Origin: an uncultured Alphaproteobacteria bacterium
GTDB taxonomy: Bacteria; Pseudomonadota; Alphaproteobacteria; M2410
Length of the DNA: 64,000 nt
Reading direction: 5' to 3'
Assembly (NCBI GenBank): GCA_965603015.1
Contig: CBFDBJ010000004.1
Coordinates: 5,933-69,932 of the forward strand
Shown: piece after piece, positions 13,464-63,693 of the stretch
Layout of the letters: each line of letters starts with the position of its first letter
Numbering within the stretch: the first letter of the stretch is position 1
Notes under the pieces: generated by a model
What the model was told of the DNA's origin: nothing
The model's input: the letters and a program-made list of their open reading frames with translations, nothing else
Database searches by the model: none
Made by a program: the position numbers and the translations under genes

Positions 13464-13473
13464 GATATGCGCC

Positions 13474-14793: not shown

Positions 14794-14917
14794 CTTTTTT
14801 CCTCTTTTGTAAAACTGTGTGCCGAGCTGAGCGTCGATAACGCTGTTCGGGCCAATCGTTATCGTGATCCGGCACATATTGACGGGTCATGAAAACCGAT
14901 CAGGCCAGATTGTTGTA

Positions 14918-16186: not shown

Positions 16187-16215
16187 GGATCTTGCTCCCC
16201 TTTAGAGTTCAACTA

Positions 16216-16536
16216 TCAGAATTGGGCAATCGGCAGACGGACGACAAGCCCGTCAAGGTCGTCAGTCACCTTGATTTGACAGGCAAGGCGGCTGGTTTCT
16301 TCGGCGGCTTCGGCGAAATCCAGCATGGTCACTTCCATGTCCGTTTTGGTGCCGGTTTTCGACTGCCATTCAGGGTCGACGTAAATGTGGCAGGTGGCGC
16401 AGGCGCAGGCCCCGCCGCAATCCGCGTCGATTCCTGGTACAAGATTGTTCACTGCGCCTTCCATCAGGGAAAGCCCGACGGCGACTTCGACTTTATGTTC
16501 GCTTCCGTTGTTCTCAATGTAGGTAACGCGTGGCAT
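16216..16536 (-). CDS. [2Fe-2S] ferredoxin of the putidaredoxin/adrenodoxin type
   Basis: 106 aa with cluster ligands [11 protein letters not shown]...LACQ. Confidence 0.85.
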
Positions 16537-16681
16537 TCAGCCCTCCCTTTTTGCGTAGTATGAGTACGTATTGCGAACTGTAATCAGTAAATCCCGCAGG
16601 TCAAGTGTGGAATTTGTCTAATCTGGAGGTCGGTCGAAGGTCAGGCCCTCTGGTGGGCGCGAAAGCCTCAGGCCTTCAACC

Positions 16682-17953
16682 TCAGGCTTTCAGGGGGTGA
16701 AGCCGGACGGGCAGTTCAGTGATCCCCATGACGAAGTTGGAGCGCAGGCGGGTGGGTTCGCCGACGACTTCGACCTTTTCAAAGCGCTTCAGGATTTCCT
16801 CCCACAGGATGCGGAGCTGCATTTCACCGACACGGTTGCCCAGGCAGCGGTGAATGCCAAAGCCGAACGAGAGGTGATGGCGCGCCCTGGCACGATCAAT
16901 CAGGAATTCATCGGGGCGATCAATAGCCTCCTCATCGCGGTTGCCCGAGATATACCACATGACCACCTTGTCACCCTTTTTGATCAGCTTGCCGCCGAGC
17001 TCATAGTCCTCGAGCGCGGTGCGCCGCATGTGGGCGAGCGGTGTGACCCAGCGAATGATTTCAGGGACCATGTTGGGAATGATATCGGGGTTGGCGCGCA
17101 GCTTGTCATATTCCTTTGGGAACTGATTGAGGGCGAGGAGACCGCCGGAAATCGAGTTGCGCGTCGTGTCGTTGCCGCCGACAATCAGCAGGATCAAATT
17201 GCCAAGAAACTCGAGCGGGTCCTTTGTTAGATCCTTCGTGTCGGGATTGGTGGCAAGCAGGGAAATGAAATCAGTGCCCTGATAGTTCTCGCCGCGAGAG
17301 GCCCAGAGATTTTTGAAATAATCGATGCACTCGAGCAGTTCCTTCTTGCGCCCTTCTTCGGATATGAAGGCAGCATCCGTGCCGCTTGATTCTGGCCTTG
17401 AGGTCGCAACATCTGACCAGCGCGGCAGCATGCGGCGATCTTCCCAGGGGAAGTCAAACAGGGTTGCCAGCATCTGGGTGGTCAGTTCGATTGAGACCCG
17501 GTCGACCCAGTCGAAGGTTTCGCCGACCGGCAAATCGTCGAGGATTGTGCAGACGCGTGTCCGAATGAGCGCTTCCAGTTGTGCCAGATTGACCGGCGCA
17601 ACGGCCGGCGTAGCGGCTTTTCTCTGCACATCGTGGACGGGGGGATCGGAAGCAATGAAGCTGGAGGTTTGAAATTCGGGGTCGGGGTCTCCGATGACAA
17701 TGGCGGGCTCGGAGGAAAAGACCTTGTGATTGGTATCGACCGCGACGATGTCATCGAATTTCGTGATCGACCAGAACGGCCCGAAGGCGCTCTCGCTGCA
17801 GAAATGAACAGGATCTTCCTTGCGGAGCCGTTTGAAATAATCCCAGTGCCGTTGATTTTGAAAGAGATGGCTGTCGCTGACATCAAGAGTGTCCAGCGGG
17901 AGGTTCCAGGGGCCTGATAATTGATCGGCTTTGTGATCGTCGGCAAGGCTCAT
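16682..17953 (-). CDS. Cytochrome P450 of the CYP153 family, paralogue 3
   Basis: HLSFGFGIHRCLGNRVGEMQLRILWEEILKRF, LLIVGGNDTTRNSISGGLLALNQ and EDPVHFCSESAFGPFWSITKFDDIVAVDTNHKVFSS. Confidence 0.85.
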   Translation of the reverse strand: MSLADDHKADQLSGPWNLPLDTLDVSDSHLFQNQRHWDYFKRLRKEDPVHFCSESAFGPFWSITKFDDIVAVDTNHKVFSSEPAIVIGDPDPEFQTSSFIASDPPVHDVQRKAATPAVAPVNLAQLEALIRTRVCTILDDLPVGETFDWVDRVSIELTTQMLATLFDFPWEDRRMLPRWSDVATSRPESSGTDAAFISEEGRKKELLECIDYFKNLWASRGENYQGTDFISLLATNPDTKDLTKDPLEFLGNLILLIVGGNDTTRNSISGGLLALNQFPKEYDKLRANPDIIPNMVPEIIRWVTPLAHMRRTALEDYELGGKLIKKGDKVVMWYISGNRDEEAIDRPDEFLIDRARARHHLSFGFGIHRCLGNRVGEMQLRILWEEILKRFEKVEVVGEPTRLRSNFVMGITELPVRLHPLKA

Positions 17954-18037
17954 CAGCTCATCTCCCTTTTACGATAACAGTTCGCAGGATCGATGATATC
18001 TGGATATTTCGTCCGGTCAATATGGAACCGCGTTCAC

Positions 18038-19627
18038 CTAACCCTCCAGTTCCACGAAATTAAGAGCTTGATTGGCGGTTCTCATGACGTGGCGCCTCTT
18101 TACCGAGTTCTGCAAAAACCGGTTCAGGGCGGCTGTCATGAGAGAGACTTGCGGACCTTGCGGCCTTGCTGTGATCTCCCTTTGTGTTGCGGTAATGAGT
18201 TTGACGATGTGACAGGAAACGATGTGCTCGAACTGGGCGTGATCGAAGAGGATTTCTTTGGCCTCACTGACAAAGGGCTCAGGGTTGTCCACATTGAATT
18301 CGCTTGTATCGAGATCCTTGTCGACAAAGGGTGTGTTGCGTCCAAGGAAACAGGCCATTTGCAGAAGCCCTTGCGGCCAGAGATCCGGATAGCGCGTGCA
18401 AAGCTCGTGGACGGAATTGGCAAAAGTTATGGCGTGGGTGAAGTTGAGCCAGTCGACGTTGTGGGAGATGTTGGTGCCGGTGTGGCGCTGGAATTCGAGA
18501 TCAAAGTGGAGAAAATTCCAGGCATTGGCCGCAAGCAGGGCGTCATAGAGTGCGCGCGGATCTGATGAACTCCCTGTCGCCTTTGCCAGAGCCTGGCGGA
18601 CAGACAGGCCCTTGAAGTCTTGCCAGTCTACCGGCGCTTCGCCCTTGTTGGTCCAGTTTTTCAGGGCATCGCGGTAATTGCGAAACTCGGGAATAAGATC
18701 CTCCCGTCTGGCATAGACGAGTTCGCGCATCAGAGCCAGGGTTGCCGGCACCATGATCCTTTCGCCCAGCCTGTCGACGAGCTGACCGATTTTGAGCACA
18801 TAGATGGTCGCGTGGCCAAACCCCTGATAGTGGGCGAAGGCGGCGCGGGCGAGAGCCGGTTCGATGTCTCTATATCTGAGGCCAGCACGTGCGGCGCCGC
18901 GAATAAGTGCAGCGGCCTCGTCTTCATGTTCGCCCTCAACGGCGGTTACAAATGTGTCTTCGTTCCACTGAGCAACTGCATCCGTAAAAGGATAATCGGG
19001 CTCGCGGCGCGTGTCCCATGCGATATGGGCGGTCGGCTCAAGGAAGGTGATGAGGTGTTTTGCCGGATTGTCGTGAACTTCGTCTGCGAGCGTCATCCAG
19101 TCGGCGGCGGCGGCAAAGGGATGGCCCATGCCATATTCGAATTTCTCGTGTGAGCGCAGAACGGCGTTGGCCAGAACGTCCTTCAAGTTTCCGCCATCCT
19201 TTTTGTAGCGGGCGAGTTCGCGGGCGATGCGGTCATAGTCGTAATCGTCCCAGGCTTCGCTCAGGTTTTCGAGGATCCTCGGAAGTCTCTGTCCAGGTGC
19301 AGGATCAGATAAATCAACGAGGACTTCGCCATTCTTGACCTTGACGGGATAGAGGCGAACTGCATCGCCGCCGACCATGGCCTCTCCTGTGGTCAGGTCA
19401 AATTTCCAGTTGTGCCAATTGCAGGTTAGAGTGCAGGTGCCAGGGCCGCTGCCTGTCAGCGTGCCTTCGGCAAGGGGATAGCCTTCATGGGGGCAGCGAT
19501 TGTTGCAAGCGAAGGTCTCACCGTCTCGCAGGATTACGAGGACCTGCTTGCCGTTTTTCTTGAAGACCTTTTGGCCTTTTTCTTCCAGTTCGCTCAGAGG
19601 TCCCGCAGATGTCCAGATCTGGTTCAT
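18038..19627 (-). CDS. Rieske [2Fe-2S] domain fused to a ~420-aa domain of unknown function
   Basis: N-terminal Rieske motifs CPHEG...(21 aa)...CNWHNW. Start set at MNQIWTS (ATG 19627) with AAAGGAG upstream; the track's longer ORF to 19729 would overlap the divergent regulator. No DxxHxxxxH mononuclear-iron motif of Rieske oxygenase alpha subunits is recognisable in the C-terminal part. Confidence 0.7.
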   Translation of the reverse strand: MNQIWTSAGPLSELEEKGQKVFKKNGKQVLVILRDGETFACNNRCPHEGYPLAEGTLTGSGPGTCTLTCNWHNWKFDLTTGEAMVGGDAVRLYPVKVKNGEVLVDLSDPAPGQRLPRILENLSEAWDDYDYDRIARELARYKKDGGNLKDVLANAVLRSHEKFEYGMGHPFAAAADWMTLADEVHDNPAKHLITFLEPTAHIAWDTRREPDYPFTDAVAQWNEDTFVTAVEGEHEDEAAALIRGAARAGLRYRDIEPALARAAFAHYQGFGHATIYVLKIGQLVDRLGERIMVPATLALMRELVYARREDLIPEFRNYRDALKNWTNKGEAPVDWQDFKGLSVRQALAKATGSSSDPRALYDALLAANAWNFLHFDLEFQRHTGTNISHNVDWLNFTHAITFANSVHELCTRYPDLWPQGLLQMACFLGRNTPFVDKDLDTSEFNVDNPEPFVSEAKEILFDHAQFEHIVSCHIVKLITATQREITARPQGPQVSLMTAALNRFLQNSVKRRHVMRTANQALNFVELEG

Positions 19628-19710
19628 GGTCAATGCACTCCTTTTTAAAGATATTTCTTTATAAATATAGAGGGCTTGCCTTTTATCAAGAAAAAACTTT
19701 ATAAAATGGT

Positions 19711-20376
19711 ATGACTGGCAAATCATCACATAAAGAACCCGGCTTCGCAGATGGTTCGCAAAAGACCCGCGACAGGGTCATTTCGCTCCTGAAACGCGAG
19801 GGACCACAGGATGCAGGGGTCCTTGCGGCAAGACTTGGCGTTAGCGCCATGGCCGTGCGCCAGCATCTCTATGAGTTAAGCGATCAGGGCCTGGTGACTG
19901 CATCCGAGCAGAAAGGCGCGATTGGGAGGCCGACAAAAATCTGGGCACTGGACGTGACCGCGAGTGGCCTCTTTCCGGATGGTCATGGTGATTTTACTTA
20001 TGAGCTTATTGGCTCCATTCGGGAGACCTTCGGCGAGGAAGGCATGGCGAGCCTTTTGCGCAATCGTTCGGAGAAGCAAATCACCTCCTATAAGAATCAG
20101 ATGGGCGATGGGTCGCTCAGTCAGCGTCTTGAGCGCCTCGCGGCGATCCGCAGCGAGGAGGGCTATATGGCCGACGTGACAGAGGCGGAGGACGGATCTC
20201 TCCTGATGGTGGAGAACCATTGCCCGGTCTGCCAGGCCGCAAAAGCCTGCAGCGGCCTCTGTGCGGAGGAGTTGCATGTCTTTCAGGCGTGTCTGGGTCA
20301 GAGTGTGAAGATTGAGAGGGCCGATCATATCCTGGCCGGTGCGCGGCGGTGTGCCTACCGGGTCACGGCCATCTGA
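19711..20376 (+). CDS. Winged-helix (ArsR/MarR-like) transcriptional regulator with a Cys-rich C-terminal region
   Basis: HTH segment RVISLLKREGPQDAGVLAARLGVSAMAVRQHLYELSDQGLV and C-terminal HCPVCQAAKACSGLCAEELHVFQAC...RRCAY (putative metal or Fe-S ligands). Transcribed divergently from the Rieske/P450 string. Confidence 0.55.
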   Translation: MTGKSSHKEPGFADGSQKTRDRVISLLKREGPQDAGVLAARLGVSAMAVRQHLYELSDQGLVTASEQKGAIGRPTKIWALDVTASGLFPDGHGDFTYELIGSIRETFGEEGMASLLRNRSEKQITSYKNQMGDGSLSQRLERLAAIRSEEGYMADVTEAEDGSLLMVENHCPVCQAAKACSGLCAEELHVFQACLGQSVKIERADHILAGARRCAYRVTAI

Positions 20377-36249: not shown

Positions 36250-37059
36250 TCAGGACTTTTTCCGTTTTGAGGGTGCTTTCCCCGCAAGCAAGGCCCATAT
36301 GACCAGGCCAACGTAGAGCAGGGAAAGGGCGACCAGGGTGATCCAGGCATAGGTCAGGACTGCAGCGCCGATAAAGACAAAGCCAACGATGAGGAATTTC
36401 ACATTCTCTCGCGACACGGTCATGGCTCTGAACGACCAGGTGGGAATGCGGCTGATCAGCAAAAGACCGACGCCGATCATGTAAAAGCAGATGATGCCCG
36501 CAGGCACAAGCGGCGCATCCGCGATGGCGAAGGACGCGAACATGGGCATCATAACCAGGCCCGCTCCGGCGGGGGACGGCACGCCGGTATAGTAACCACC
36601 ATCGTCGTCCTCAATATCAGATTTATGGACGACATTGAACCGCGCCAGGCGCAGAACGCAACACACCGCAAAAATCAGTACAGATATCCACCCGGCACTG
36701 GGCATGTCCTGCAGCGCCCAGAAATAAATCACCAGCGGCGGCGCTACACCGAAATTGACAAAATCGGCCAGGGAATCCAGCTCGGCGCCCATTTTACTGT
36801 CGCTCTTGAGCAAGCGCGCCAGCTTCCCGTCCAGTCCGTCAAGCACACCGGCGGCCAGGACCAGCAGAACGGCGCGTTCATAATCTCCCTGAAACCCGAA
36901 CCGGATCGCCGTCAGGCCCGCGCAAATTGCCACGATGGTCAACAGATTGGGCAGGAGGTGAATGACCGGCAGGTCGGGCTTTAATCTGCTGTGGCTTTTG
37001 CCCGGAAGCCTGTCTGAAACAGGGGTATCTGAAATATGGCTGTCTGGCGGGTGTTGCAT
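36250..37059 (-). CDS. pssA: CDP-diacylglycerol--serine O-phosphatidyltransferase
   Basis: CDP-alcohol phosphatidyltransferase motif DGLDGKLARLL...A.LD..AD in a polytopic membrane protein. Confidence 0.8.
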   Translation of the reverse strand: MQHPPDSHISDTPVSDRLPGKSHSRLKPDLPVIHLLPNLLTIVAICAGLTAIRFGFQGDYERAVLLVLAAGVLDGLDGKLARLLKSDSKMGAELDSLADFVNFGVAPPLVIYFWALQDMPSAGWISVLIFAVCCVLRLARFNVVHKSDIEDDDGGYYTGVPSPAGAGLVMMPMFASFAIADAPLVPAGIICFYMIGVGLLLISRIPTWSFRAMTVSRENVKFLIVGFVFIGAAVLTYAWITLVALSLLYVGLVIWALLAGKAPSKRKKS

Positions 37060-37062
37060 GGG

Positions 37063-37755
37063 TCAGTCTGTCCTTCCGTCGCGGGCATCTTCTGAAGACT
37101 GCAAATCTGCCACAACCGTCTCGCCCGCAACCATGGTTTGGCCCAGGCTGACCTGCGGCTCCACGCCCTCGGGTAAATACACATCCAGCCGGGAGCCAAA
37201 CCGGATCAGACCAAATCGTTCCCCGGTTTTCACATTTTGCTCCGGCTTAACAAAGCAAACGATGCGCCGCGCAACCAGACCTGCAATTTGTACAACAGCA
37301 ATTTGTCGCCCGTCATCCATCTTTATACACAGACTGTTGCGTTCATTATCGACACTGGCCTTGTCCAGCGACGCGTTGAGAAACTTGCCCGGTCGGTAGG
37401 CAATGGCCGTGACTTCTCCTTCTATCGGTGCCCGGTTCACATGACAATTGAACACGTTCATAAAGACGCTGATGCGGGTCAACGCCTGTGATGACATGCC
37501 AAGTTCGACGGGTGGGACTGCTTTTTCGATTAACGAAACGATGCCGTCCGCCGGGCTGACGATCAGTCCTGCGCGCACCGGAGTGGTGCGCCTGGGGTCA
37601 CGGAAGAAATAGTAACACCAGACGGTCAGACCGACGCCGATCCAGCCAAGGAAACTCGAAAGCAGAAAAAGTAACAAGGTGACGACGGCAAAGACGGTGA
37701 CGAATTTTTTGCCCTCCGGGTGCATCGGCTTCAGAAATGTTTCGAGCATTGTCAT
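37063..37755 (-). CDS. psd: Phosphatidylserine decarboxylase proenzyme (short alphaproteobacterial type)
   Basis: 230 aa with an FGSR self-cleavage region ([11 protein letters not shown]), directly upstream of pssA. Confidence 0.8.
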
Positions 37756-37988
37756 TGATGTTGTGCCTGGCAGGTTGTTTAAAAGAGTTTGTCGTCAGGA
37801 TCGTGAAAGTAGCATGGTACACTTGTCCGCGCCAAATACCATATTTGAACATTACACAGGCACATTCCGCAGCGCCATTTGCTGCGTCGCGAAAGCGGAA
37901 TTAACACAAGAAAAAACGCCGCGCTTTGACAAGCTGCGGCGTTTTTCGGTGTTCTGCAGGCTTTTGCCTTGCGCTTTCGCTAGCCCGA

Positions 37989-38213
37989 TTAGCTGGCGAG
38001 GAAACCTTCGAATTTCTTTTTGAATTTGCCAACACGGCCAGCAGCATCGACGAGATGGTGGCTGCCACCGGTCCACGCCGGATGGGAGGTCGGGTCAATA
38101 TCAAGGGTCAGGGTGTCGCCTGCCGAGCCGTAGGTAGAACGGGTCTCGTAAGTGGTCCCGTCGGTCATCACAACGGTGATCATATGATAATCGGGATGGA
38201 TGTCTTGCTTCAT
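37989..38213 (-). CDS. rpmE: 50S ribosomal protein L31
   Basis: [27 protein letters not shown]... Confidence 0.9.
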
Positions 38214-38484
38214 AACCTGAACTCCGGAATGCCCGTTTGAGGGCGCTTTTTCTTACTCGAGCGCCAGTTGCATAACCGCAATGTCGCCAAAAACGAGCCC
38301 GGTATATACAGGCAGGCTATGGGCTCCGCAAGGGAAAAACCGGCTCGTCGCAAGGGAAAATCTCCCACAATCGATCACATGTGGCGATTATCGCCTTGCA
38401 TTGATGGCGCGAAGCACTGATTTTGACGAGCACGGGGCGCAAAGCTCCGGTTTGTGCGGGATTCAAACCTTTGAAGAGGGATTT

Positions 38485-40332
38485 ATGGCGAGACGTGGTT
38501 CGGGTAGCAAAGACCTCGAGGATCGCCCCACCTCGCGGAATGTCGGTGCCTTGCGCGGCCTTGTGCCCTTCGTTCTGAGATACAAGGCGCGCCTCGCCCT
38601 GATCTTTATCATGTTGTCGGTGGCTTCAGCGGCGACGCTGGCGATGCCTTACGGGGTTGGTATCCTGATCGACAACGGGTTTTCGGACGGGCCGACCGGG
38701 GAAGGCACAGGCGATATTGATCAATATTTTGGTTTCTTTCTTGCCCTGGCGACGGTGCTGGCACTGTCCTCGGCAGGGCGCTTTTACTTTGTTATGTGGA
38801 TGGGCGAACGGGTTGTCGCCGACGTGCGCAAAGCCGTCTACCGGCATCTGATGGACCTGAGCCCGAGCTTTTATGAAAAGACCAAAACCGGTGAAATTCT
38901 CTCTCGGCTCACCACGGACACGACGCTTATTCAGTCAGTGGTGGGCGCCAGTGCCTCGATCGCGCTGCGCAATGTCTTCATGCTGATTGGTGCCCTTGGT
39001 CTGCTGATTTATACCAGTCCGAGGCTGTCGGCCTATTTTGTTATTCTCGCACCGATGGTCATCCTGCCGCTTATTGTTGTTGGCCGCCGTGTCCGCGGGC
39101 AATCCAGTCAGGCCCAGGAGAAAGTCGCCGACACAAGCGCGCTTGCCGGCGAAAGCCTCGCCGCTATCCAGACCGTGCAGAGCTATACGCAAGAAAAAAG
39201 GGAAGCGTTCCGGTTTGATGAGGCTACGGAATTTGCTTTCAAGGCGGGCAAGCGGCGCATTTCATCGCAGGCTGCATTGACGGCGACCATCATCTTTCTG
39301 GTTTTTGCAGGCATCGTTGGCGTGCTATGGGCTGGCGCGCGCCTTGTTGCCTCCGATCCTGATTTTACCGGCGGGACTCTTGCCCAGTTTATTCTTTACT
39401 CAGTACTGGCTGCCAGCTCTATGGGTGCGCTCAGCGAGGTCTGGAGCGAGGTTCAAAGGGCCTCCGGGGCTGCCGAGCGCCTTATGGAACTGCTGAACAT
39501 ATCGAGCGATATTATTGCGCCGGAGACACCCGAGAGGTTGCCTGATCGGGTCGAGGGTGCCCTGGTGTTTGACAATGTCACGTTCAAATATCCGACCCGT
39601 GATCATGTGGAAGTCTTGCAAGAGTTTTGCCTCCAGATCGCCCCGGGTGAAAAGATCGCGCTGGTTGGCCCCTCGGGCGCGGGCAAGACCACGGTCTTCC
39701 AACTGCTGTTGCGGTTCTATGATCCGCGCAAGGGGGGCATTACCATCGAGGGCAGGGATCTGCGCACCCTTGATCCTGTTGATCTAAGAAACCAGTTTTC
39801 GGTGGTCTCGCAAGACCCGGTTATTTTTGGAACCACGGCGCGCGCGAATATTCTTTATGGCCGCCCTGACGCCAGCGACCAGGATGTTGAGGCGGCAGCC
39901 GAGGCAGCAACTGCGGACCGGTTCCTTGAAGCTTTGCCGCAAGGTTACGATACGGACCTGGGGCCAAATGGAGTGACGTTATCGGGTGGGCAGCGGCAAC
40001 GGGTGGCCATTGCCCGGGCGGTGCTGCGTGATGCGCCCATTCTCCTGCTCGACGAGGCAACAAGCGCGCTTGATTCAGAAAGCGAGAGCCTCGTGCAAGG
40101 TGCCCTCGACAAGCTGATGGAAGGCCGCACGACGCTGATCATTGCGCACAGGCTTTCAACGATCCTCAAGGCTGACCGGATCGTGGTTCTCGACGAGGGG
40201 CGGATTGTTGATATCGGGCGGCACGACGAACTGGTGGCAAAAGGCGGCCTTTACGCCCGGCTGGCGGAACTTCAATTTAATGCTAAGATAACCGACATTC
40301 GCGCCCACACGACTGGGGACACAAGAGGGTAA
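38485..40332 (+). CDS. ABC transporter, fused permease/ATPase (MsbA-like exporter)
   Basis: Six-TM domain plus an NBD with Walker A GPSGAGKTT, signature LSGGQRQRVAIARA and Walker B ILLLDEATSALD; start at MARRGS with GAAGAGGG upstream. Confidence 0.85.
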   Translation: MARRGSGSKDLEDRPTSRNVGALRGLVPFVLRYKARLALIFIMLSVASAATLAMPYGVGILIDNGFSDGPTGEGTGDIDQYFGFFLALATVLALSSAGRFYFVMWMGERVVADVRKAVYRHLMDLSPSFYEKTKTGEILSRLTTDTTLIQSVVGASASIALRNVFMLIGALGLLIYTSPRLSAYFVILAPMVILPLIVVGRRVRGQSSQAQEKVADTSALAGESLAAIQTVQSYTQEKREAFRFDEATEFAFKAGKRRISSQAALTATIIFLVFAGIVGVLWAGARLVASDPDFTGGTLAQFILYSVLAASSMGALSEVWSEVQRASGAAERLMELLNISSDIIAPETPERLPDRVEGALVFDNVTFKYPTRDHVEVLQEFCLQIAPGEKIALVGPSGAGKTTVFQLLLRFYDPRKGGITIEGRDLRTLDPVDLRNQFSVVSQDPVIFGTTARANILYGRPDASDQDVEAAAEAATADRFLEALPQGYDTDLGPNGVTLSGGQRQRVAIARAVLRDAPILLLDEATSALDSESESLVQGALDKLMEGRTTLIIAHRLSTILKADRIVVLDEGRIVDIGRHDELVAKGGLYARLAELQFNAKITDIRAHTTGDTRG

Positions 40333-41489: not shown

Positions 41490-42524
41490 CTATCGTTCTG
41501 TCAGCTTGAATTCGATGCGGCGATTGCGGCGCAGTGCCGAGTTGGTCCCGGATGCATCGAGTGGCTGGAATTCGCCAAATCCGGCAGCAACCAGATGGTT
41601 CGGATCGACCCCTTCGCCGACAAGGAAAGTGACCACGGAAATTGCGCGGGCACTTGAGAGGTGCCAGTTTGACGGAAATTGCGGCGTCTTGATCGGCACG
41701 GCATCGGAATGGCCGTCGACCCGCAGTATCCATTTTATGTCGTCCGGTATCGAAGTCGTAATCTCTCGCAAGGCACCTGCCACCTTCTTCAGTTCCGAGC
41801 GACCCGCCGGGTTTATATCTGCCGATCCGGAGTCAAACAGAACCTCCGACTGCAGAATAAACCGATCTCCAACGACCTCAATATCGTCGCGGTCCCCCAG
41901 GGCCGTTCTGAGGCGGCCAAAGAATTCGGAGCGATAGCGGGCCAGTTCCTGAACCTTTTGAGCCAAGGCGGCATTGAGACGTTTGCCCAGGTTGGCAATC
42001 TCGGCCTGAGAGGCGGTGTCGCGTGCCTCCGAGGCATCCAGTGTTGCCTGCAGACTGGCAATCTGTTGGCGCAGGGCTGCCATCTGCTGATTGAGCAGTT
42101 CGACCAGCGCCCGGGCCTCCGCAGACAATGCTTTTTCATCATCAACGGTACTTTCAAGACCGCGAATATCGCCTTCCGCTTCGGCCAGAAGTCCCTGAAG
42201 GTGGATGATCCGGGCGTTGGCGGCATCGCTGGTATCGTCGGTTGATACGAGCGTTGCGGAGAGCTGCGCCATTTGCATCTCATAGCCGCTTGCCCGGTCT
42301 TTTTCCAGATCGAGCAGTTCGGCGAGTTCGGCAATCCGGGCGTTCAGCCGCTCCATCGCCTCATCGCGGCCGTTTAACGCCTGGCCGAGAAAAAACTGGG
42401 CCAGCACAAAGATTGACAGGAGGAAGACAAGAACCAGCAGAAGCGTTGTCAGGGCATCGACGAAGCCTGGCCAATAGTCTGCGGAAAAGCCGCGGGATCG
42501 TCTGGTTCGGGCGCTGCGAGCCAT
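41490..42524 (-). CDS. MotB/TolR-like membrane protein with a ~200-aa periplasmic coiled coil and a C-terminal OmpA/Pal-like peptidoglycan-binding domain
   Basis: TM helix with a conserved Asp (YWPGFVDALTTLLLVLVFLL, cf. TolR FVDVMLVLLVVF), heptad-rich 60..270 region and a C-terminal OmpA_C domain (...NWHLSSARAISVV...NRRIEF). Confidence 0.7.
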   Translation of the reverse strand: MARSARTRRSRGFSADYWPGFVDALTTLLLVLVFLLSIFVLAQFFLGQALNGRDEAMERLNARIAELAELLDLEKDRASGYEMQMAQLSATLVSTDDTSDAANARIIHLQGLLAEAEGDIRGLESTVDDEKALSAEARALVELLNQQMAALRQQIASLQATLDASEARDTASQAEIANLGKRLNAALAQKVQELARYRSEFFGRLRTALGDRDDIEVVGDRFILQSEVLFDSGSADINPAGRSELKKVAGALREITTSIPDDIKWILRVDGHSDAVPIKTPQFPSNWHLSSARAISVVTFLVGEGVDPNHLVAAGFGEFQPLDASGTNSALRRNRRIEFKLTER

Positions 42525-42529
42525 GAATA

Positions 42530-43489
42530 TTACCTCTGGCGATCAGCACTATCGAAAAGGGCGATGGGGTCTTCTGCGGCTTTGACAAGGCGATCAATGG
42601 CGGGTTTCAATGCCTCTGCACTTTCCTTGCTCGATGATGCGGTCATTCCCGATATCGTATGTTCCAGCGACCGGATTGCGCCATAAAGCTTGTTGATGGC
42701 CTCATGATTGAGCCCGCCGCCGCCGGAAGGGGACCCGCCGTCGGTACTGACTTGCGTGCGGGTCGACAAATATTCCTCAAGTTCGTTGTAGAACCGGTTT
42801 TGCGCCTGGCCCGCCCGCAGATCGAGGAACCCCAGGACGAGAGACCCCGACAGGCCGAAGAGAGACGATGAGAAGGCAATGGCCATGCCGCTCAGGGGCG
42901 CTTCGAGGCCGGCGATGAGTTCTTCAAACACGGACTGTGAGGCGCCGGCAGCAGGTGTCAGGGCACGGATGGATTCAGATACAGCGGTAATTGTCTGGAG
43001 CAAGCCCCAGAACGTTCCCAGCAGTCCGAGGAACACAAGCAACCCGATCATGTAGCGTGAAATCTCGCGGCTCTCGTCAAGGCGCGATCCGATGGAATCA
43101 AGAATTGAACCAAGGGCTGTTGCCGAAAGCGAGGTTGGTCCGCTGCGGTCACGTAACATGGCGGCCATAGGGGCGACGAGTTCCGGCGGCGCATAGTCGT
43201 GATGGCTCCCGATCCGGCCGGGTGCGCCGTGGTCATCCATGCGGAAATTCTCGATCCACTGGACAGATGGTGTGAGACGGAAGACCTGTGCGAATGTGTA
43301 GATGATGCCGACAAGCAGGACGCCCAGGATCAGGCCATTGAGAAAGACATTGGCCCCAAAGGCCTGCACGATCCGGTCAAACAGAGCGGCGGCGATCAGG
43401 CTGGCGATAATGAGAAAAAGCACCATGCCTGCCGCATAACGGCTCGGCCGGGTCATCCTGAAATAATCACTGTCATCTCTTCGGGCCAT
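42530..43489 (-). CDS. MotA/TolQ/ExbB-family proton-channel protein
   Basis: TM3-4 region FLGLLGTFWGLL...AIAFSSSLFGLSGSLVLGFL...NRFYNELEEY aligns with TolQ of this window (FVGLFGTVWGIM...ALGLLAAIPAVIFYNKFTNDLNRY). An alternative GTG start lies at 43573. Confidence 0.6.
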   Translation of the reverse strand: MARRDDSDYFRMTRPSRYAAGMVLFLIIASLIAAALFDRIVQAFGANVFLNGLILGVLLVGIIYTFAQVFRLTPSVQWIENFRMDDHGAPGRIGSHHDYAPPELVAPMAAMLRDRSGPTSLSATALGSILDSIGSRLDESREISRYMIGLLVFLGLLGTFWGLLQTITAVSESIRALTPAAGASQSVFEELIAGLEAPLSGMAIAFSSSLFGLSGSLVLGFLDLRAGQAQNRFYNELEEYLSTRTQVSTDGGSPSGGGGLNHEAINKLYGAIRSLEHTISGMTASSSKESAEALKPAIDRLVKAAEDPIALFDSADRQR

Positions 43490-43727
43490 GAGCTTGTCTC
43501 TTCTCCATGCAAAGGCGTGCAAAGGTATGGCTTTCGTGCACAACAATAGCGGCGAAACGCCCCGATTTGGCACCCAAAGGGCGCCTGGCGTGTCGCATAG
43601 CCATCATGCTGCAAGACTGTGGCCACATCCAGGCTTTACCACTAAATGGGGTCAGGCACTAACTGCGCTCAACATGGTACCATGATCTGCCAAATGGTGT
43701 CTGACCCCATTTGGGGAATACATGGTA

Positions 43728-58274: not shown

Positions 58275-59021
58275 ATGACTACTGCAATTTTTGTGGGTGG
58301 CGCGATTGCCTTTGGCGCTGGCGTTCCCTTGGCTGCGACCGGGGATTTCAGCCTGGCCGGGCTGTTTATGAACGCCGACATCGTGGTCAAGGCGGTGATT
58401 GTCGGGCTTGGCCTCGCCAGTCTGTGGTCGTGGGCCATTATCATCGACAAGTGGCTGAAGGTCGGCTCGCTGTCACGCAAGGCCGACAAGTTCGAGGACA
58501 TGTTCTGGTCCGGCAAGTCGCTTGATGACCTTTACAAGAATCTGGGCCACAAGCCGGCCCATCCGATGGCCGTAGTGTTTGTGTCTGCCATGCGGGAGCT
58601 GCGGCGCTCGCTTGAGCGGCGCGGTGTCGACAACGGCAAGTTTTTGACCGTTCATGACCGGATTGAAAAGGTTATGAATGTTACGATCGCCAGAGAAATG
58701 GCGTCGAGCGAAAAGCATCTCGGGTTTCTTGCTACCGTCGGCTCGACGGCCACCTTTGTCGGTCTGTTCGGAACGGTCTGGGGCATCATGAATGCCTTCA
58801 AGTCCATTGCTGCGTCACAGGACACGTCTCTCGCCGTTGTTGCACCGGGGATTGCCGAAGCGCTTTTTGCTACGGCGCTTGGTCTTCTGGCGGCGATCCC
58901 GGCGGTGATTTTCTACAACAAGTTTACCAATGATCTGAACCGCTATGCGGTGCGGCTCGAGGGGTTTGCGGATGAATTCTCTGCGATCCTGTCGCGCCAG
59001 CTTGAAGAACGGGGTGCGTAA
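58275..59021 (+). CDS. tolQ: Tol-Pal system protein TolQ
   Basis: MotA/TolQ/ExbB family, GLFGTVWGIMNAF...AIPAVIFYN. Confidence 0.85.
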   Translation: MTTAIFVGGAIAFGAGVPLAATGDFSLAGLFMNADIVVKAVIVGLGLASLWSWAIIIDKWLKVGSLSRKADKFEDMFWSGKSLDDLYKNLGHKPAHPMAVVFVSAMRELRRSLERRGVDNGKFLTVHDRIEKVMNVTIAREMASSEKHLGFLATVGSTATFVGLFGTVWGIMNAFKSIAASQDTSLAVVAPGIAEALFATALGLLAAIPAVIFYNKFTNDLNRYAVRLEGFADEFSAILSRQLEERGA

Positions 59022-59024
59022 ACC

Positions 59025-59459
59025 ATGGTGGCATCAGTTTCCAGGAAGGACGGTCGGGGGCGCTCACATAGCCGACCGATGAGCGAGATCAATGTGACGC
59101 CTTTTGTGGATGTCATGCTTGTTCTGCTTGTGGTTTTTATGGTCACAGCGCCGCTGCTCGCGGTCGGTGTGCCGGTTAATCTGCCCGATACCCAGGCGCC
59201 GCCTCTGACGGCCAGTGAAGAGCCGTTGACGATCACGATTGATTCCGGCGGGCAGATTTTCCTGCAGGAAACCAATATCGAACTGGGTGAGCTGGTGCCG
59301 CGCCTGCTTGCCATTGCCGAGAACGGCTATGAAGAACGGATCTATATTCGTGCGGACCAGGCCGTTGATTACGGGACGGTCATGGTTGTCATGGGCCATG
59401 TGAACGCTGCCGGGTTTACCCGTCTGGGCCTTGTCAACGATCCAGCGCAGACGGAGTAA
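59025..59459 (+). CDS. tolR: Tol-Pal system protein TolR
   Basis: SEINVTPFVDVMLVLLVVFMV (ExbD/TolR family). Confidence 0.85.
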   Translation: MVASVSRKDGRGRSHSRPMSEINVTPFVDVMLVLLVVFMVTAPLLAVGVPVNLPDTQAPPLTASEEPLTITIDSGGQIFLQETNIELGELVPRLLAIAENGYEERIYIRADQAVDYGTVMVVMGHVNAAGFTRLGLVNDPAQTE

Positions 59460-59463
59460 GTGC

Positions 59464-60342
59464 ATGCGCTTCGGATTTTTCCTTTCTGTGCTTGCCCATG
59501 TCGCCATTGTCATGGCGGCGGTGGTGACGCTGCCGTCGATGTTCGACGGGGCGGAAGAATTCCAGATGCTGCCTGTTGAAATACTCGAAATTGGTTCGGA
59601 GACAAATGTTCGCGCTGCGGCCCTTAAAATTGCCGAGGCGCCCGAGCCCGAACCTGTCAAGGAAGAAGAGCCGAAGTTCGCCGAGGCGCCACCGCCGCCG
59701 GCGCCGCCAGCTATGAATGAGCCCGTCGCCGAAGACGCCATGCCGGCTCTGGCAAAGGCTAGCGATCCAAAGCCAAAACCGAAGAAGGCCGAAAAGTCGT
59801 CGGTGAAAAACACCATGCCGCGGCGCAAGCCAAAACCTCCGGCCCCTCAGAGTAAGGATGAACTCGATCTGGGTGAGTTGCAGGCTCTGCTCGACAAGGC
59901 TCCAAAAGATGAGCCGAAACCTCAGCCGCAGCAGTCGGATGATGCGCTGGATTCTCTGGATGATTTTCTGGCCGAGGATGAGGCAGACCTGCCGCGCAGG
60001 GCAATTGGTCTGGGCGACGGGATGACAATCAGCGAGGTTGATGCGCTGCGGCAGGAAATGCAAAAGTGCTGGCGGCCCCCGACCGGCGCGGCCAATCCCG
60101 AGGAGCTGATCGTCGAACTCAGAATCTTCCTGAATGAGGACGGGTCCCTTGTGCGAGCGCCGCGGGTTGAGCGGTCAGGCACTTCGACATTTGGCAAGAA
60201 TTCCTTCACAATGGCAGCAGAAGAGGCGGCGCGCCGGGCTGTGGTGATGTGCGCGCCGTATGATTTTCTTCCTGCCGATAAATACGAGCGGTGGAAGGAA
60301 GTAACGATTACTTTCGATCCGGCCAGTATGGTTGGATATTGA
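59464..60342 (+). CDS. tolA: Tol-Pal system protein TolA (TM anchor, Pro/Ala/Lys-rich linker and C-terminal domain)
   Basis: MRFGFFLSVLAHVAIVMAAVV anchor, then a low-complexity PEP/KPKPKK linker, in the tolA position. Confidence 0.65.
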   Translation: MRFGFFLSVLAHVAIVMAAVVTLPSMFDGAEEFQMLPVEILEIGSETNVRAAALKIAEAPEPEPVKEEEPKFAEAPPPPAPPAMNEPVAEDAMPALAKASDPKPKPKKAEKSSVKNTMPRRKPKPPAPQSKDELDLGELQALLDKAPKDEPKPQPQQSDDALDSLDDFLAEDEADLPRRAIGLGDGMTISEVDALRQEMQKCWRPPTGAANPEELIVELRIFLNEDGSLVRAPRVERSGTSTFGKNSFTMAAEEAARRAVVMCAPYDFLPADKYERWKEVTITFDPASMVGY

Positions 60343-60391
60343 ACGTGTCCGGTTTTGAGTAGTTTCATGTGTTTTGATAAAGGGTAGAGCG

Positions 60392-61786
60392 ATGCAATTG
60401 GCAGATTTGAAGATGGCGCGGAAAAGCTTTGCAAGAGGGCTCGCGGCTGCAGCGGTTCTGGGACTTGTGCAAACGGTTTTGCCAGCCTCGATGCAGATCA
60501 GCGCTCCGGCGCGGGCAGAAGAGCCGCTTCACATCGTCATTGACCAGGGCAAGGTTGAGCCGCTGCCGATCGCGCTGCCGGGGTTTATCGGAAAATCACA
60601 GGCCGAGCGGGACACCGGGGCCAATATTGCGAAGGTCATTTCCGATGATCTGGAGCGTTCGGGCCTTTTTCGGGCTCTGGATCCACGAAGCTTCATTGAA
60701 AGATCGACGGATTTCGAGACCCTGCCGCGCTTTAATGACTGGCGGATTATCAACACTGAGGCCCTGGTGACAGGCCAGGCGGTTATTCAGGACGATGGCC
60801 GCCTCAGGGTCGAGTTTCGCCTCTGGGACGTGGTGCGGAACCAGCAACTGCGCGGGAAAAAATACTACACAACCCCGGAAAACTGGCGCCGCATAGCGCA
60901 TCTGGTCTCCGACGAGATCTACAGCCGCCTGACCGGCGAGACCGGCTATTTTGATACCCGGGTGGTCTTTGTGCAGGAGAGCGGGCCCAAGATCGCCCGC
61001 CGCAAGCGCCTCGCCATTATGGACCAGGACGGGGCCAATGTGAGCTTTCTGACCGATGGCTTCGATATGGCGCTGACGCCGCGATTCTCGCCCACGGCGC
61101 AGGAAGTGACCTACCTGTCGTATTTTAACAACAAGCCGAGAGTTTATTTGCTCAACATCGAGTCCGGTCAGCAGGAAGTGGTCGGGGACTTCCCCGGGAT
61201 GACATTCGCGCCAAGGTTCTCTCCGGACGGCGGCAAGATCATCATGAGCCTCGACACCCGGGGCAATTCGGACATCTATGTGATGGACCTGCGGAACCGT
61301 CGTCAGACCCGTTTGACCGAACATCCGGCGATTGATACCGCGCCATCCTATGCACCCGACAGCCGTGCGATCAGTTTTGAATCGGATCGTTCCGGACGCC
61401 AGCAGCTTTATGTCATGCGCAGTGATGGCACCGATATTCGGCGGATTTCATGGGGTGAAGGGCGCTATGCCACGCCGGTGTGGAGCCCTCGCGGCGATCT
61501 CATCGCCTTCACGAAAATGCTGCGCGGACGGTTCTATATCGGGGTGATGCGCCCTGACGGCGACCCGAAAACAGAGCGGCTTTTGACCGAAAGTTTCCTT
61601 GATGAAGGTCCGACCTGGGCGCCCAACGGCCGGGTTTTGATGTTTTTCAGGCAGACGCCAAATCGTAGAGATGGATCGGGAGGCACGGTAAAGTTGTGGT
61701 CTGTGGACCTCACGGGCTATAATTTGAGGGAAGTTCCGACCCTGGGGGATGCATCAGACCCTGCATGGTCGCCCTTGATAAAATAG
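60392..61786 (+). CDS. tolB: Tol-Pal system beta-propeller protein TolB
   Basis: Signal peptide, TolB N-domain and repeated ...P.FSPDG..I.F.S.R.G beta-propeller blades. Confidence 0.9.
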
Positions 61787-62066
61787 CAAATCAAGGTTAA
61801 CTTGCCTGCGATGCGGTGAAGCAGGGGGTGAAGCTGCCATATTGGAAGTTTCATTGAGGCCTTTTCGGGGGATTCCTGGCTGCCAGTCGCTGATCGCGAG
61901 AGTAATTTATTGGGGTGAATTAATCGAGGAAGGGATCGAGTTTCAGGGGGCTGATAGCGCTAATGCTATCCAATTCATTTGCAAATAATTCATGCAATGG
62001 TGGTAACGGTCTCATTGGAAGTTTGGTTTTGACCAGAAATTTGGGGATTGTCCGGAAGGAGTCTTT

Positions 62067-62570
62067 TTGATGAGAATGTTACGTTTAAGCAAAATCGCAG
62101 GTCTGGCCGTTGGAGCATTACTGCTCGCCGCATGTTCGGGATACAACGGTACGTCTTCTGTCGCGTCGGATTCGTATGCGGAGCCATCGGGTCCGGTTGC
62201 GGGCTCGCAGGAAGATCTTGAGGCCAATGTTGGTGATCGGATCTACTTTGCCTTTGATCGCTATGACCTCAACGACGCTGCACAGGCTACGCTGCGCCGT
62301 CAGGGTGCATGGATGAAAATGCATCCTTCTGTGACGGTTCTGGTCGCCGGTAACTGCGACGAGCGCGGTACACGCGAATATAACCTTGCTCTTGGTGCGC
62401 GCCGGGCAAACTCCGCCAAGGACTTCCTGACAAGTCTCGGCGTTGATCCAGCTCGTATTTCCACGATCTCCTACGGTAAGGAACGTCCGACCTGCATGGG
62501 TTCCAATGAGGAATGCTGGGCGTTGAACCGGAATGATATTACTTCGGTAACCGGCGGTCCTGCTTCTTAA
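62067..62570 (+). CDS. pal: Peptidoglycan-associated lipoprotein Pal
   Basis: Lipobox LLAACSG plus OmpA_C domain (GNCDERGTREYNLALGARRANSAKDFL). Confidence 0.9.
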   Translation: MMRMLRLSKIAGLAVGALLLAACSGYNGTSSVASDSYAEPSGPVAGSQEDLEANVGDRIYFAFDRYDLNDAAQATLRRQGAWMKMHPSVTVLVAGNCDERGTREYNLALGARRANSAKDFLTSLGVDPARISTISYGKERPTCMGSNEECWALNRNDITSVTGGPAS

Positions 62571-62790
62571 GACCCGGTCGATGTGATAGCGACTTTTGGG
62601 CGCCCTTGCTTCATTGCAGGGGCGCCTTTCGTCGTTTCTTTACCGCTTGTATGGTATTGAGATCATCCGAAATCGCCGCCGCCCTAATTTGGGCGAAGTT
62701 GCGAGATAGTGTGTTGGTGAAATCAACCGTGGCAGAGATGTGAGGTCTCATTTTTGTTGCACGGTTTCTTTGTTACGAGGATTAAGGCAA

Positions 62791-63693
62791 ATGACTGGTT
62801 TGCGATTGAACAAAAAAGCTCCCGTAGTAGCTGTGATCACGGCGTTGGCAGTGACACTCTTTTCAAGCTCGGCGAGTTTTTCGCAGGACAATCGGAAGCG
62901 GGATGATCAAATGGATGCGCTGAATGCGCGGATCGACTGGATGGAACAGTCCCTGATCGAGCTGCAAAGCACCGAGGGCAATTATGGCGGGGCGTCGCCG
63001 ATGAACACGGCAGGTTCTTTTGATCAGCAGGAAGACCCTGCTATCACAAGGGTTCTGACACGGCTTGACGATCTGGAAAATCAGATCCGCTCTCTCACCA
63101 ATCAGCTGGAACAAACAACGTTCCGGATTGAACAGGCAAACCGCGATCTCCAGTCGCTTTCCAAGGATGCTGATTTCCGTCTGCGTACTCTTGAGCAGGG
63201 CGGCACGGCCGGGCAGCAAGGCATGCCGCCAGCTCATTCAGCCCCGATGCCGCAATCAACGCCCGAGGAACAGAGCCTGGGAACCATTCCGGTTGATCCG
63301 GCTACGGGCAATTATCAGGAAGATTACGACGGGGCGCTGTCGCATCTGCGCCGTGGCGAGCATGAAAATGCTGAGCAGGCACTGCGTCTGTTCCTCGACA
63401 ATCACAGCGATTCAGACCTCGCCGGCAATGCACAATACTGGCTCGGTGAAAGCTACTATGTCCGCGAAATGTGGCGACCGGCGGCTCAGAGTTTTCTGAT
63501 CTGTGTACAGAAGTACAAGAACGGTCTCAAAGCGCCGGATTGTATGCTGAAGCTGGGCATGTCGCTTGGGGCTATGGGTGAAAAGAAAAAGGCGTGCAAG
63601 ACCTTGAGTGAAATCACCCGGCGTTTCCCCGATGCCTCACAGACCATCCAGCAGCGCGCACGTTCAGAACGCCAGCGCAGTGGTTGCACCTGA
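62791..63693 (+). CDS. cpoB: Cell division coordinator CpoB/YbgF (coiled coil plus TPR)
   Basis: Signal peptide, coiled-coil stretch, then C-terminal TPR-like AQYWLGESYY...; last gene of the tol-pal operon. Confidence 0.75.
   Translation: MTGLRLNKKAPVVAVITALAVTLFSSSASFSQDNRKRDDQMDALNARIDWMEQSLIELQSTEGNYGGASPMNTAGSFDQQEDPAITRVLTRLDDLENQIRSLTNQLEQTTFRIEQANRDLQSLSKDADFRLRTLEQGGTAGQQGMPPAHSAPMPQSTPEEQSLGTIPVDPATGNYQEDYDGALSHLRRGEHENAEQALRLFLDNHSDSDLAGNAQYWLGESYYVREMWRPAAQSFLICVQKYKNGLKAPDCMLKLGMSLGAMGEKKKACKTLSEITRRFPDASQTIQQRARSERQRSGCT

Follow-up and report, generated by a model that had tools for sequence, protein, structure and literature searches.

The stretch of DNA analyzed here, hereafter the window, comprises 64,000 nucleotides (nt) of contig CBFDBJ010000004.1 (positions 5,933 to 69,932, forward strand; assembly GCA_965603015.1) from an uncultured alphaproteobacterium of the M2410 lineage. 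On its minus strand lie two adjacent open reading frames (ORFs), separated by 5 nt, which we term gene A and gene B (Table 1). A first-pass annotation made from the sequence alone had singled them out as a MotA/TolQ-like plus MotB/TolR-like pair, and both ORFs are indeed present. The mechanically called ORF of gene A (42530-43573) starts at an upstream GTG at 43573 and would encode 347 amino acids (aa); alignment with 17 homologues places the real start at the ATG at 43489, which yields a protein of 319 aa beginning with MARRDD. As that annotation had held, the pair is a separate member, neither Tol nor flagellar nor Zorya, of the class of systems that combine a MotA/ExbB/TolQ/ZorA-like subunit with a MotB-type subunit. 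It further proves to be a vertically inherited core operon of the Alphaproteobacteria, present in many orders of this class.

The A protein has four hydrophobic segments in hydropathy analysis (residues 19-37, 48-66, 146-164 and 204-222), and its lysines and arginines are concentrated in the N-terminus, in the 79-residue loop between segments 2 and 3, and in the 97-residue C-terminal part. This positive-inside pattern predicts that both ends are cytoplasmic, as in the topology of MotA. The channel motifs attributed to A at first pass are well conserved, namely FLGLLGTFWG in transmembrane segment (TM) 3 and AFSSSLFGL in TM4, and the soluble tail, then put at about 100 aa, measures 95-97 aa. Database models place the protein at the margin of known families. 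The Pfam MotA_ExbB model scores it at 20.5 bits, under the gathering score of 22.9; the sole NCBIfam match is ZorA_2 (20.1 bits, E = 2.7e-4, cut-off 100), none of the NCBIfam MotA models matches at E < 0.1, and the PADLOC ZorA1 profile gives a partial match (E = 4.9e-12, 43 bits, profile positions 105-226 of 683). In profile-profile comparisons with hhalign only 23 columns around FLGLLGTFWG align with Escherichia coli ExbB (E = 9.6e-5) and with the TolQ of the window itself (6.7e-5), and E. coli MotA is reached at E = 0.013. A search of the PDB sequences with the A family profile recovered no genuine relative, only spurious designed helical proteins. The AlphaFold2 monomer model of A (predicted local distance difference test score, pLDDT, 72.6) shows the predicted helical fold of the 5:2 ion-driven motor superfamily typified by MotA, ExbB and TolQ, and the first fifty Foldseek matches to this model all fall in A-subunit families of such motors (ZorA, TolQ, ExbB and MotA). 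Judged by its predicted structure, A is a divergent branch of the MotA/ExbB/TolQ/ZorA superfamily, lying outside every curated subfamily.

The B protein starts with a short arginine-rich cytoplasmic N-terminus, which leads into one membrane helix with a WPGFVD motif; the aspartate of this motif, Asp23, is presumed to be the proton-binding residue. Asp23 is invariant in the alignment of B homologues, and the motif WP[GAS][FYW][VI]D is found in all but one of 71 homologues (70/71), in agreement with the conserved aspartate initially claimed for this helix. The AlphaFold2 model of B (pLDDT 77.9) comprises helices at residues 19-115 and 120-209, a low-confidence break at 116-123 and an alpha/beta domain at 215-343. 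Where about 200 residues of heptad-rich coiled coil had been envisaged, a long helical region is indeed predicted, but a more apt description is some 165 helical residues showing a sparse a/d pattern, since the heptad signal is visible but modest (z up to about 2). The C-terminal domain is of the MotB type, i.e. an OmpA-like peptidoglycan-binding domain: Foldseek returns the periplasmic domains of MotS, MotB and PomB as best matches (4e-12, TM-score 0.79), and full-length ZorB also aligns. With hhalign the B profile matches E. coli MotB at 2.8e-9, the Pal protein of the window at 6.6e-5 and its TolR at 0.039, which is not significant, and Pfam detects no ExbD/TolR domain (PF02472) in B. On these values the description of B as a merger of TolR-, TolA- and Pal-like parts holds as an analogy and not as homology. 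We accordingly classify B as MotB/ZorB-like, with peptidoglycan binding suggested by its sequence and predicted fold.

Among curated models, PADLOC ZorB3 matches B at 3.7e-21, and NCBIfam MotD and MotS match its C-terminal half only (1e-31 and 7e-27; 110 and 95 bits against cut-offs of 283 and 264). The NCBIfam model PRK09039.1-4 (NF006545, an equivalog named 'peptidoglycan-binding protein') scores 437.4 bits against a cut-off of 372 and pairs residues 5-344 with positions 4-342 of its 342 positions. As B lies above this cut-off, the family is already catalogued; the locus is an ordinary member of it, and the family itself represents a known class of motor in a variant that has been little studied and wrongly named. 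Classification against hidden Markov models, which had been suggested as a check, left A under the Pfam MotA_ExbB and NCBIfam ZorA cut-offs, with B passing that of PRK09039.

The pair is flanked by suhB (Pfam Inositol_P, 3.6e-70) and by a beta-propeller gene of the arylesterase/SGL type, the neighbors recognized at the outset. The complete tolQRA-tolB-pal set reported earlier is also present, as part of a tolQ-tolR-tolA-tolB-pal-cpoB cluster in which tolA is named by position, its ORF having no Pfam match. Since a complete cluster of this kind lies elsewhere in the window, the A-B pair is an extra system. The G+C content is uniform over the whole window, so that nothing points to a foreign island.

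Table 1. Position of the A-B pair, of its predicted segments and of other features in the window
Feature	Position	Strand	Basis or remark
Gene A, channel (rotor) subunit of the MotA/ExbB/TolQ/ZorA superfamily, 319 aa	42530-43489	minus	
A residues 19-66, TM1, short periplasmic loop and TM2	43292-43435	minus	hydropathy, positive-inside pattern; AlphaFold2 helices 15-35, 48-70
A residues 67-145, cytoplasmic loop, C-terminal half (LVAPMAAML...SILDSIGSRLDESREISRY) conserved	43055-43291	minus	invariant columns
A TM3, FLGLLGTFWG (Thr159), equivalent of the ExbB/TolQ channel motif GLxGTVxG	42980-43054	minus	hhalign; mean identity 0.84
A TM4, P198...AFSSSLFGLSGS motif	42818-42895	minus	invariant columns; mean identity 0.87
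A cytoplasmic C-terminal part, conserved post-TM4 helix 225-245 (QAQNRFYNELEE) and poorly conserved helical tail 246-319	42533-42817	minus	AlphaFold2 helices 184-244, 260-282, 289-318
Gene B, MotB/ZorB-like stator subunit, 344 aa, NCBIfam PRK09039	41490-42524	minus	NF006545, 437 bits against 372
B residues 18-46, single membrane helix, WPGFVD	42387-42473	minus	Asp23 codon 42456-42458
B residues 47-209, long periplasmic helical stalk, middle variable	41898-42386	minus	AlphaFold2
B residues 215-344, MotB-type OmpA-like peptidoglycan-binding domain; GHSD, NWHLSSARA and RNRRIEF motifs	41493-41882	minus	Pfam OmpA, 8e-17
Inverted repeat in the suhB-A spacer, AAATGGGGTCAG / CTGACCCCATTT	43644-43712	minus (transcript)	perfect, 12 nt; arms 45 nt apart
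tolQ-tolR-tolA-tolB-pal-cpoB	58275-63693	plus	
pssA	36250-37059	minus	
psd	37063-37755	minus	
MsbA-like ATP-binding cassette (ABC) exporter	38281-40332	plus	adjoins psd and pssA (group 36250-40332)
MerR-family regulator	12735-13463	minus	flanks the P450 genes (group 12735-19729)
Cytochrome P450 genes, three in tandem	13474-14877, 14918-16186, 16682-17953	minus	two with near-identical N-terminal motifs
Rieske-domain protein, 563 aa	18038-19729	minus	flanks the P450 genes

To follow the family beyond the window we scanned one genome per species for the peptides [VI]FLGLLGTF and AFSSSLFGL and studied the 80 best loci out of at least 581 species-level genomes with the family. Because retrieval used two motifs of A, the conservation of these motifs in the 80 loci is partly circular; the motifs of B are unaffected. 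Both A and B have more than 8000 database relatives each among the matches listed, and a full HMMER scan of 1.84 billion representatives showed the family to be compact, the clusters (50% identity) numbering 924 at E <= 1e-30 and 3686 at E <= 1e-3. Almost all of the 80 loci are labelled Alphaproteobacteria or finer, with a few metagenome-assembled genomes (MAGs) bearing broader or discordant labels, and the groups represented include Hyphomicrobiales, Rhodospirillales, Acetobacteraceae, Kiloniellales, Rhodobacteraceae, Kordiimonadaceae, relatives of Maricaulis, and Bradyrhizobium.

Mean identity to the window residue is highest in TM4 and TM3 of A (Table 1), followed by the post-TM4 helix (0.80), and falls to 0.21 in the tail, which in the window protein is shorter and divergent and lacks the EQKVVREW motif found in most homologues. 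Within the cytoplasmic loop of A it is 0.68 for residues 101-145 and 0.35 for residues 67-100. The corresponding values in B are 0.78 for the membrane helix, 0.30 for the mid-stalk (residues 76-140), 0.74 for the distal stalk (141-214) and 0.69 for the OmpA-like domain, whose signatures GH[TSA]D and NxxLSxxRA occur together in 67 of 71 B proteins. High identity in the ion path and the wall module, combined with drift in the A tail and mid-stalk, points to selection on the ion path and on the wall-binding module. A wall anchor combined with a working ion path would be expected to leave such a pattern, and a mere tether would not.

The most variable feature of the family is the length of B, which ranges from 328 to 706 aa among related loci. 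Most Hyphomicrobiales-type loci encode a B of 341-344 aa, those of Rhodospirillales and Acetobacteraceae one of about 390-525 aa, and those of Rhodobacteraceae, together with one Kiloniellales-type locus, one of 613-706 aa; the other Kiloniellales-type loci have 440-546 aa. The added length sits between the membrane helix and the conserved distal stalk, and self-BLAST of the long B proteins detected no significant internal repeats. If drawn out as a straight coiled coil at about 0.15 nm per residue, stalks of 165 and 470 residues would measure an estimated 24 nm and 70 nm, respectively.

The first-pass annotation had called the pair an orphan, a description that does not survive comparison: the order efp-suhB-A-B is fixed across many orders, and B directly follows A in 77 of the 80 loci, the remaining three being cut contigs (tblastn of the window genes). 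The gaps between A and B mostly lie between -4 and +40 nt. In the same tblastn comparison suhB precedes A in 59 loci, and efp (41), thiE (40), the ABC exporter (31) and pgk (16) recur. Unbiased clustering of 813 flanking ORFs recovers the same housekeeping families together with gap, fba, rpmE, DUF1465 and a Sel1-repeat protein, and gene calls with Pfam assignments in three close relatives give the string tkt-gap-pgk-thiE-efp-suhB-A-B-(arylesterase-like)-ABC-rpmE. In Rhodobacteraceae the surrounding synteny is broken and A and B still stay together. No flagellar, TonB-receptor or Zorya effector (zorC/D) family recurs among the 813 ORFs of the 80 neighborhoods, which extends to the related loci the earlier remark that no flagellar, TonB, Zorya or Tol partner adjoins the pair in the window. 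By its own account that annotation was to fall if orthologues always stood beside flagellar or TonB-dependent receptor genes, and the 80 neighborhoods show no such arrangement. Its view that the function is open likewise stands, there being no recognizable partner beside the pair here or in the 80 loci.

Two further, lineage-specific genes accompany the operon in a part of these loci. In 18 of the 80, belonging to Rhodospirillales, Kiloniellales and Tepidicaulis, the gene immediately upstream of A on the same strand codes for a secreted protein that is rich in proline and has an OmpA domain at its C-terminus (e.g. L056:4812-5936(+), L010:4466-5890(+), L022:4872-5903(+)). In 23 of the 80 a periplasmic Sel1-repeat gene stands between thiE and efp (thiE-Sel1-efp-suhB-A-B; e.g. 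L006:3359-4450(+)). By position the latter is the orthologue of Sinorhizobium meliloti RgsF (SMc03995), an essential periplasmic factor at the growth pole and septum; the proximity may be mere synteny or may hint at a common envelope role. Homologues of neither gene were found in the window. The MsbA-like ABC gene is convergent with B in 31 of the 80 loci.

The inverted repeat between suhB and A lies just past the suhB stop codon and occurs once in the window; the 241-nt spacer that contains it has a folding energy of -92.8 kcal/mol (z = -3.3). The hairpin is near-identical in one relative (L082, A protein 75% identical), absent in a more distant one (L081), and without a match in Rfam. It may act as a terminator or an attenuator, or be a repeat specific to the lineage. 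Elsewhere in the window, the P450 genes and the flanking Rieske-domain gene look like an oxygenase cluster unrelated to the A-B pair.

In the databases 'flagellar motor protein MotA' and 'biopolymer transport protein ExbB/TolQ' are widely used as names for homologues of A, and 'chemotaxis protein MotB' for those of B. These names look like over-annotation and could cause motility to be overcalled in alphaproteobacterial genomes and MAGs. The family is not mentioned in the searchable reviews of 5:2 motors, the MotAB evolution paper or the phylogenies, and literature searches with PRK09039, with alphaproteobacterial term sets and with S. meliloti locus tags returned nothing on it. Yet one member has been studied under the flagellar name. 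Jacek et al. 2019 (PMC6570709) described adjacent 'motA' and 'motB' genes as the only Mot-like genes of Komagataeibacter hansenii, a flagella-less acetic-acid bacterium; 'MotA' has 348 aa and four TM segments, and 'MotB' 321 aa, one TM segment and an OmpA-like domain. According to the primers of that study, MotA starts with VTRPTTY, and MotB starts with MARRSR and ends with EFRLTDR*. The A proteins of Acetobacteraceae start with MTRPERY or MTQPTRY, and window A has MTRPSRY; the B proteins of Acetobacteraceae end with RRIELRLTDR*, and window B with RRIEFKLTER*. The matching termini, sizes, topology and adjacency indicate that the K. hansenii genes are orthologues of the window pair. Komagataeibacter was not among the best 120 matches of a search seeded with an Acetobacteraceae A, its membership being set through the primer-derived termini. 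Overexpression of either K. hansenii gene gave elongated or chained cells, soft-agar colonies that spread about three times faster, and a looser cellulose network with increased yield; green fluorescent protein (GFP) fusions localized to one pole in short cells and to both poles in long cells, and the authors regarded the energy-receiving partner as unknown (PMC6570709).

In S. meliloti synteny identifies thiE2 (SMc03996), rgsF (SMc03995) and suhB (SMc03994), and the pair is likely SMc03993 plus SMc03992, an assignment made by synteny with the sequences unverified. An in vitro screen found a ChvI-bound fragment inside SMc03993 and another inside SMc00550 (PMC3687685), a weak lead given that the orthology is unverified. 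SMc00550-00552 are the equivalents of the ABC exporter, psd and pssA genes of the window, again with orthology unverified. The idea that RgsB and RgsC of S. meliloti might be a MotA/OmpA pair was ruled out, as RgsC is an M15 peptidase and neither 'MotA' nor 'OmpA' appears in PMC7327166.

Taken together, we consider it on balance probable that the pair forms a proton-driven, wall-anchored A5B2 motor of the MotAB/ZorAB type that serves a process at the envelope, pole or division site and is not a flagellar, Ton, Tol or Zorya system. B would be its fixed axle, with a cytoplasmic N-terminus, an Asp23 helix inside a ring of A subunits, and a periplasmic stalk of about 165 residues carrying the MotB-like domain that would grip the peptidoglycan. 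Protons passing Asp23 and the Thr/Ser-rich TM3 and TM4 of A would drive rotation of the A ring about a B dimer fixed to the wall, and this rotation, or an energized conformational change of B, would be transmitted to a partner not encoded beside the pair. Such a motor would most likely work in the envelope of the poles or of the division sites, for instance in wall-membrane coupling or cell separation. What the analysis establishes is the gene pair with its topology and fold class, the conserved channel residues, the MotB-type domain as judged from sequence and predicted fold, and the conservation and synteny of the operon; the 5:2 stoichiometry, proton use, peptidoglycan binding, rotation and the envelope role are inferred.

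Several observations weigh against this proposal. The stoichiometry, the ion flow and the rotation are all carried over by homology, and A is a very divergent homologue, being sub-threshold in Pfam and aligning with MotA, ExbB and TolQ only at the TM3 motif or insignificantly. The models of A and B are monomers of moderate confidence (pLDDT 72.6 and 77.9). In K. hansenii the genes were overexpressed from plasmids and the GFP fusions were overexpressed as well, and hence filamentation and the foci at the poles could both be artefactual. SMc03993 and SMc03992, the likely pair of S. meliloti, do not appear in the accessible part of the transposon-sequencing (Tn-seq) core-essential list of that organism, which suggests that an envelope role is probably non-essential there. 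Finally, a stalk whose length differs this much between orders (about 165 to about 500 residues) cannot be a universal perpendicular ruler; it may be extended, hairpinned at residues 116-123 or laid flat along the wall.

Of the alternatives, a flagellar stator and a stripped-down Zorya system are poorly supported. It could be a displaced or second flagellar stator, a MotAB paralogue powering flagellar rotation, in keeping with the MotA and MotB names of its homologues, with the MotA-like four-TM topology of A, and with a B domain nearest to those of MotS, MotB and PomB that also draws the NCBIfam MotD and MotS matches (1e-31 and 7e-27). Those scores, however, are far under their cut-offs and cover the C-terminal half only, A falls under the Pfam threshold and its alignment with E. 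coli MotA has an E-value no better than 0.013, flagellar genes do not recur in the 80 neighborhoods, and the family supplies the sole Mot-like pair of the flagella-less K. hansenii; we regard this origin as highly improbable. Equally improbable is a Zorya-like anti-phage sensor, ZorAB parted from its ZorC/ZorD effectors, even though the best profile matches of A are to ZorA (PADLOC ZorA1 at 4.9e-12, NCBIfam ZorA_2 at 2.7e-4) and B is matched by ZorB3 (3.7e-21). With the NCBIfam ZorA model A attains 20 bits where 100 are required, the tail of A has only some 75-95 poorly conserved residues, and zorC/D-like or other effector genes lie near none of the loci. Moreover, the efp-suhB synteny is stable across orders, the opposite of what is seen in a mobile defense island, and vertical inheritance in a housekeeping neighborhood makes the defense-sensor role that had been mooted for the pair unlikely.

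The other two alternatives overlap with the motor model that we favor. It is conceivable that the pair is chiefly a structural tether or spacer between inner membrane and peptidoglycan, which would have no need of ion flow and keep its channel-like core as a relic. B consists, after all, of little more than a membrane anchor, a long helix and a domain that binds the wall; its length is uniform in Hyphomicrobiales (341-344 aa at most loci), as would suit a spacer, and 18 of the 80 operons include extra OmpA-domain genes. What makes this unlikely to us is that the strongest conservation falls in the putative ion path, including the aspartate of B (70/71), that a separate four-TM subunit is always co-encoded, and that stalk length varies about threefold between orders. 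It is also conceivable, and in our estimate quite unlikely, that the pair energizes an outer-membrane process in the manner of Ton or Tol, with the B stalk acting as TolA or TonB and spanning the periplasm towards a partner in the outer membrane or on the wall, as a second Tol-Pal-like system for division or outer-membrane stabilization. By fold A is as near TolQ and ExbB as anything, B has a long periplasmic helix, and a positional RgsF orthologue lies in the same gene string at 23 of the 80 loci; moreover, the authors of the K. hansenii study likened the chained and elongated cells seen on overexpression to those produced by E. coli tolQ/tolR overexpression (PMC6570709). Against this, B possesses neither an ExbD/TolR domain nor a TonB/TolA C-terminal domain and ends in a MotB-type wall binder, the RgsF link is one of synteny only and is absent in the window, and SMc03993 and SMc03992, the presumed S. 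meliloti orthologues, are not listed in the accessible parts of the Rgs/TolQ pull-down tables.

To our knowledge, the jobs described for 5:2 ion-driven motors are flagellar rotation, Ton uptake, Tol-Pal function, gliding together with type IX secretion, and Zorya defense. A wall-anchored motor of the kind we favor would place the same engine, with a MotB-type anchor, outside these known jobs and at a fixed housekeeping site across the Alphaproteobacteria, which include rhizobia, Brucella, Agrobacterium and biotechnological cellulose producers. Finding what its ring turns, or what its stalk does, would add a new output to the motor class and could partly explain how inner membrane and wall are coupled at alphaproteobacterial poles and division sites. 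The routine flagellar and chemotaxis misnaming hides the family from envelope biologists and inflates motility predictions for genomes and metagenomes.

When set beside the flagellar stators MotAB, PomAB and MotPS, the pair shows the same adjacent A and B genes, an A with four membrane helices and cytoplasmic ends, and a B with an arginine-rich cytoplasmic N-terminus, one helix with a conserved aspartate and a MotB-type C-terminal domain. It differs in that A is not detectably MotA by sequence, in never adjoining flagellar genes in the 80 neighborhoods, and in being present in a flagella-less genus. In MotB no more than a short plug and linker joins the membrane to the wall-binding domain, whereas in B this distance is occupied by about 165 to 500 helical residues. 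Of the marks of MotAB proper (the FIT clade of PMC12505986), the pair has the MotB-type OmpA-like domain in B and lacks matches of A to MotA family models and a genomic or functional association with flagella. With the ZorAB proteins of Zorya it shares a non-flagellar setting and a B subunit ending in a wall-binding domain, PADLOC ZorA1 provides the closest profile match of A, and B aligns with ZorB over about 200 columns. The tail of ZorA is several hundred residues long, in contrast to the short and variable tail of A. There are likewise no ZorC/ZorD genes, nor the adjacent ZorE, ZorF or ZorG genes that may replace them among Zorya types I-III, no match to ZorA or ZorB models above threshold (20 against 100 bits for NCBIfam ZorA), and vertical inheritance among housekeeping genes in place of a defense island.

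TolQR and ExbBD resemble the pair in the TM motif GLxGTxWG and in the aspartate of the B membrane helix. Unlike them, A has four predicted membrane helices and not three, with an arginine-rich N-terminus predicted to be cytoplasmic where theirs is periplasmic, B carries an OmpA-like domain instead of the ExbD/TolR domain PF02472, no TolA- or TonB-like third gene is present, and the genome keeps its own complete tolQRAB-pal. The K. hansenii 'MotA/MotB' and PRK09039 form one family with the window pair, the K. hansenii B protein being the shorter (321 aa). We suggest, only tentatively, that the family may constitute a functional class of its own among 5:2 rotary motors, a wall-anchored proton motor of the core alphaproteobacterial envelope with a long-stalk axle, which would power through a further partner a process at pole or septum such as cell separation, wall-membrane spacing or surface-polymer extrusion. 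If so, it would represent a separate use of the same engine, to be set beside the flagellar, Ton, Tol, gliding and Zorya motors.

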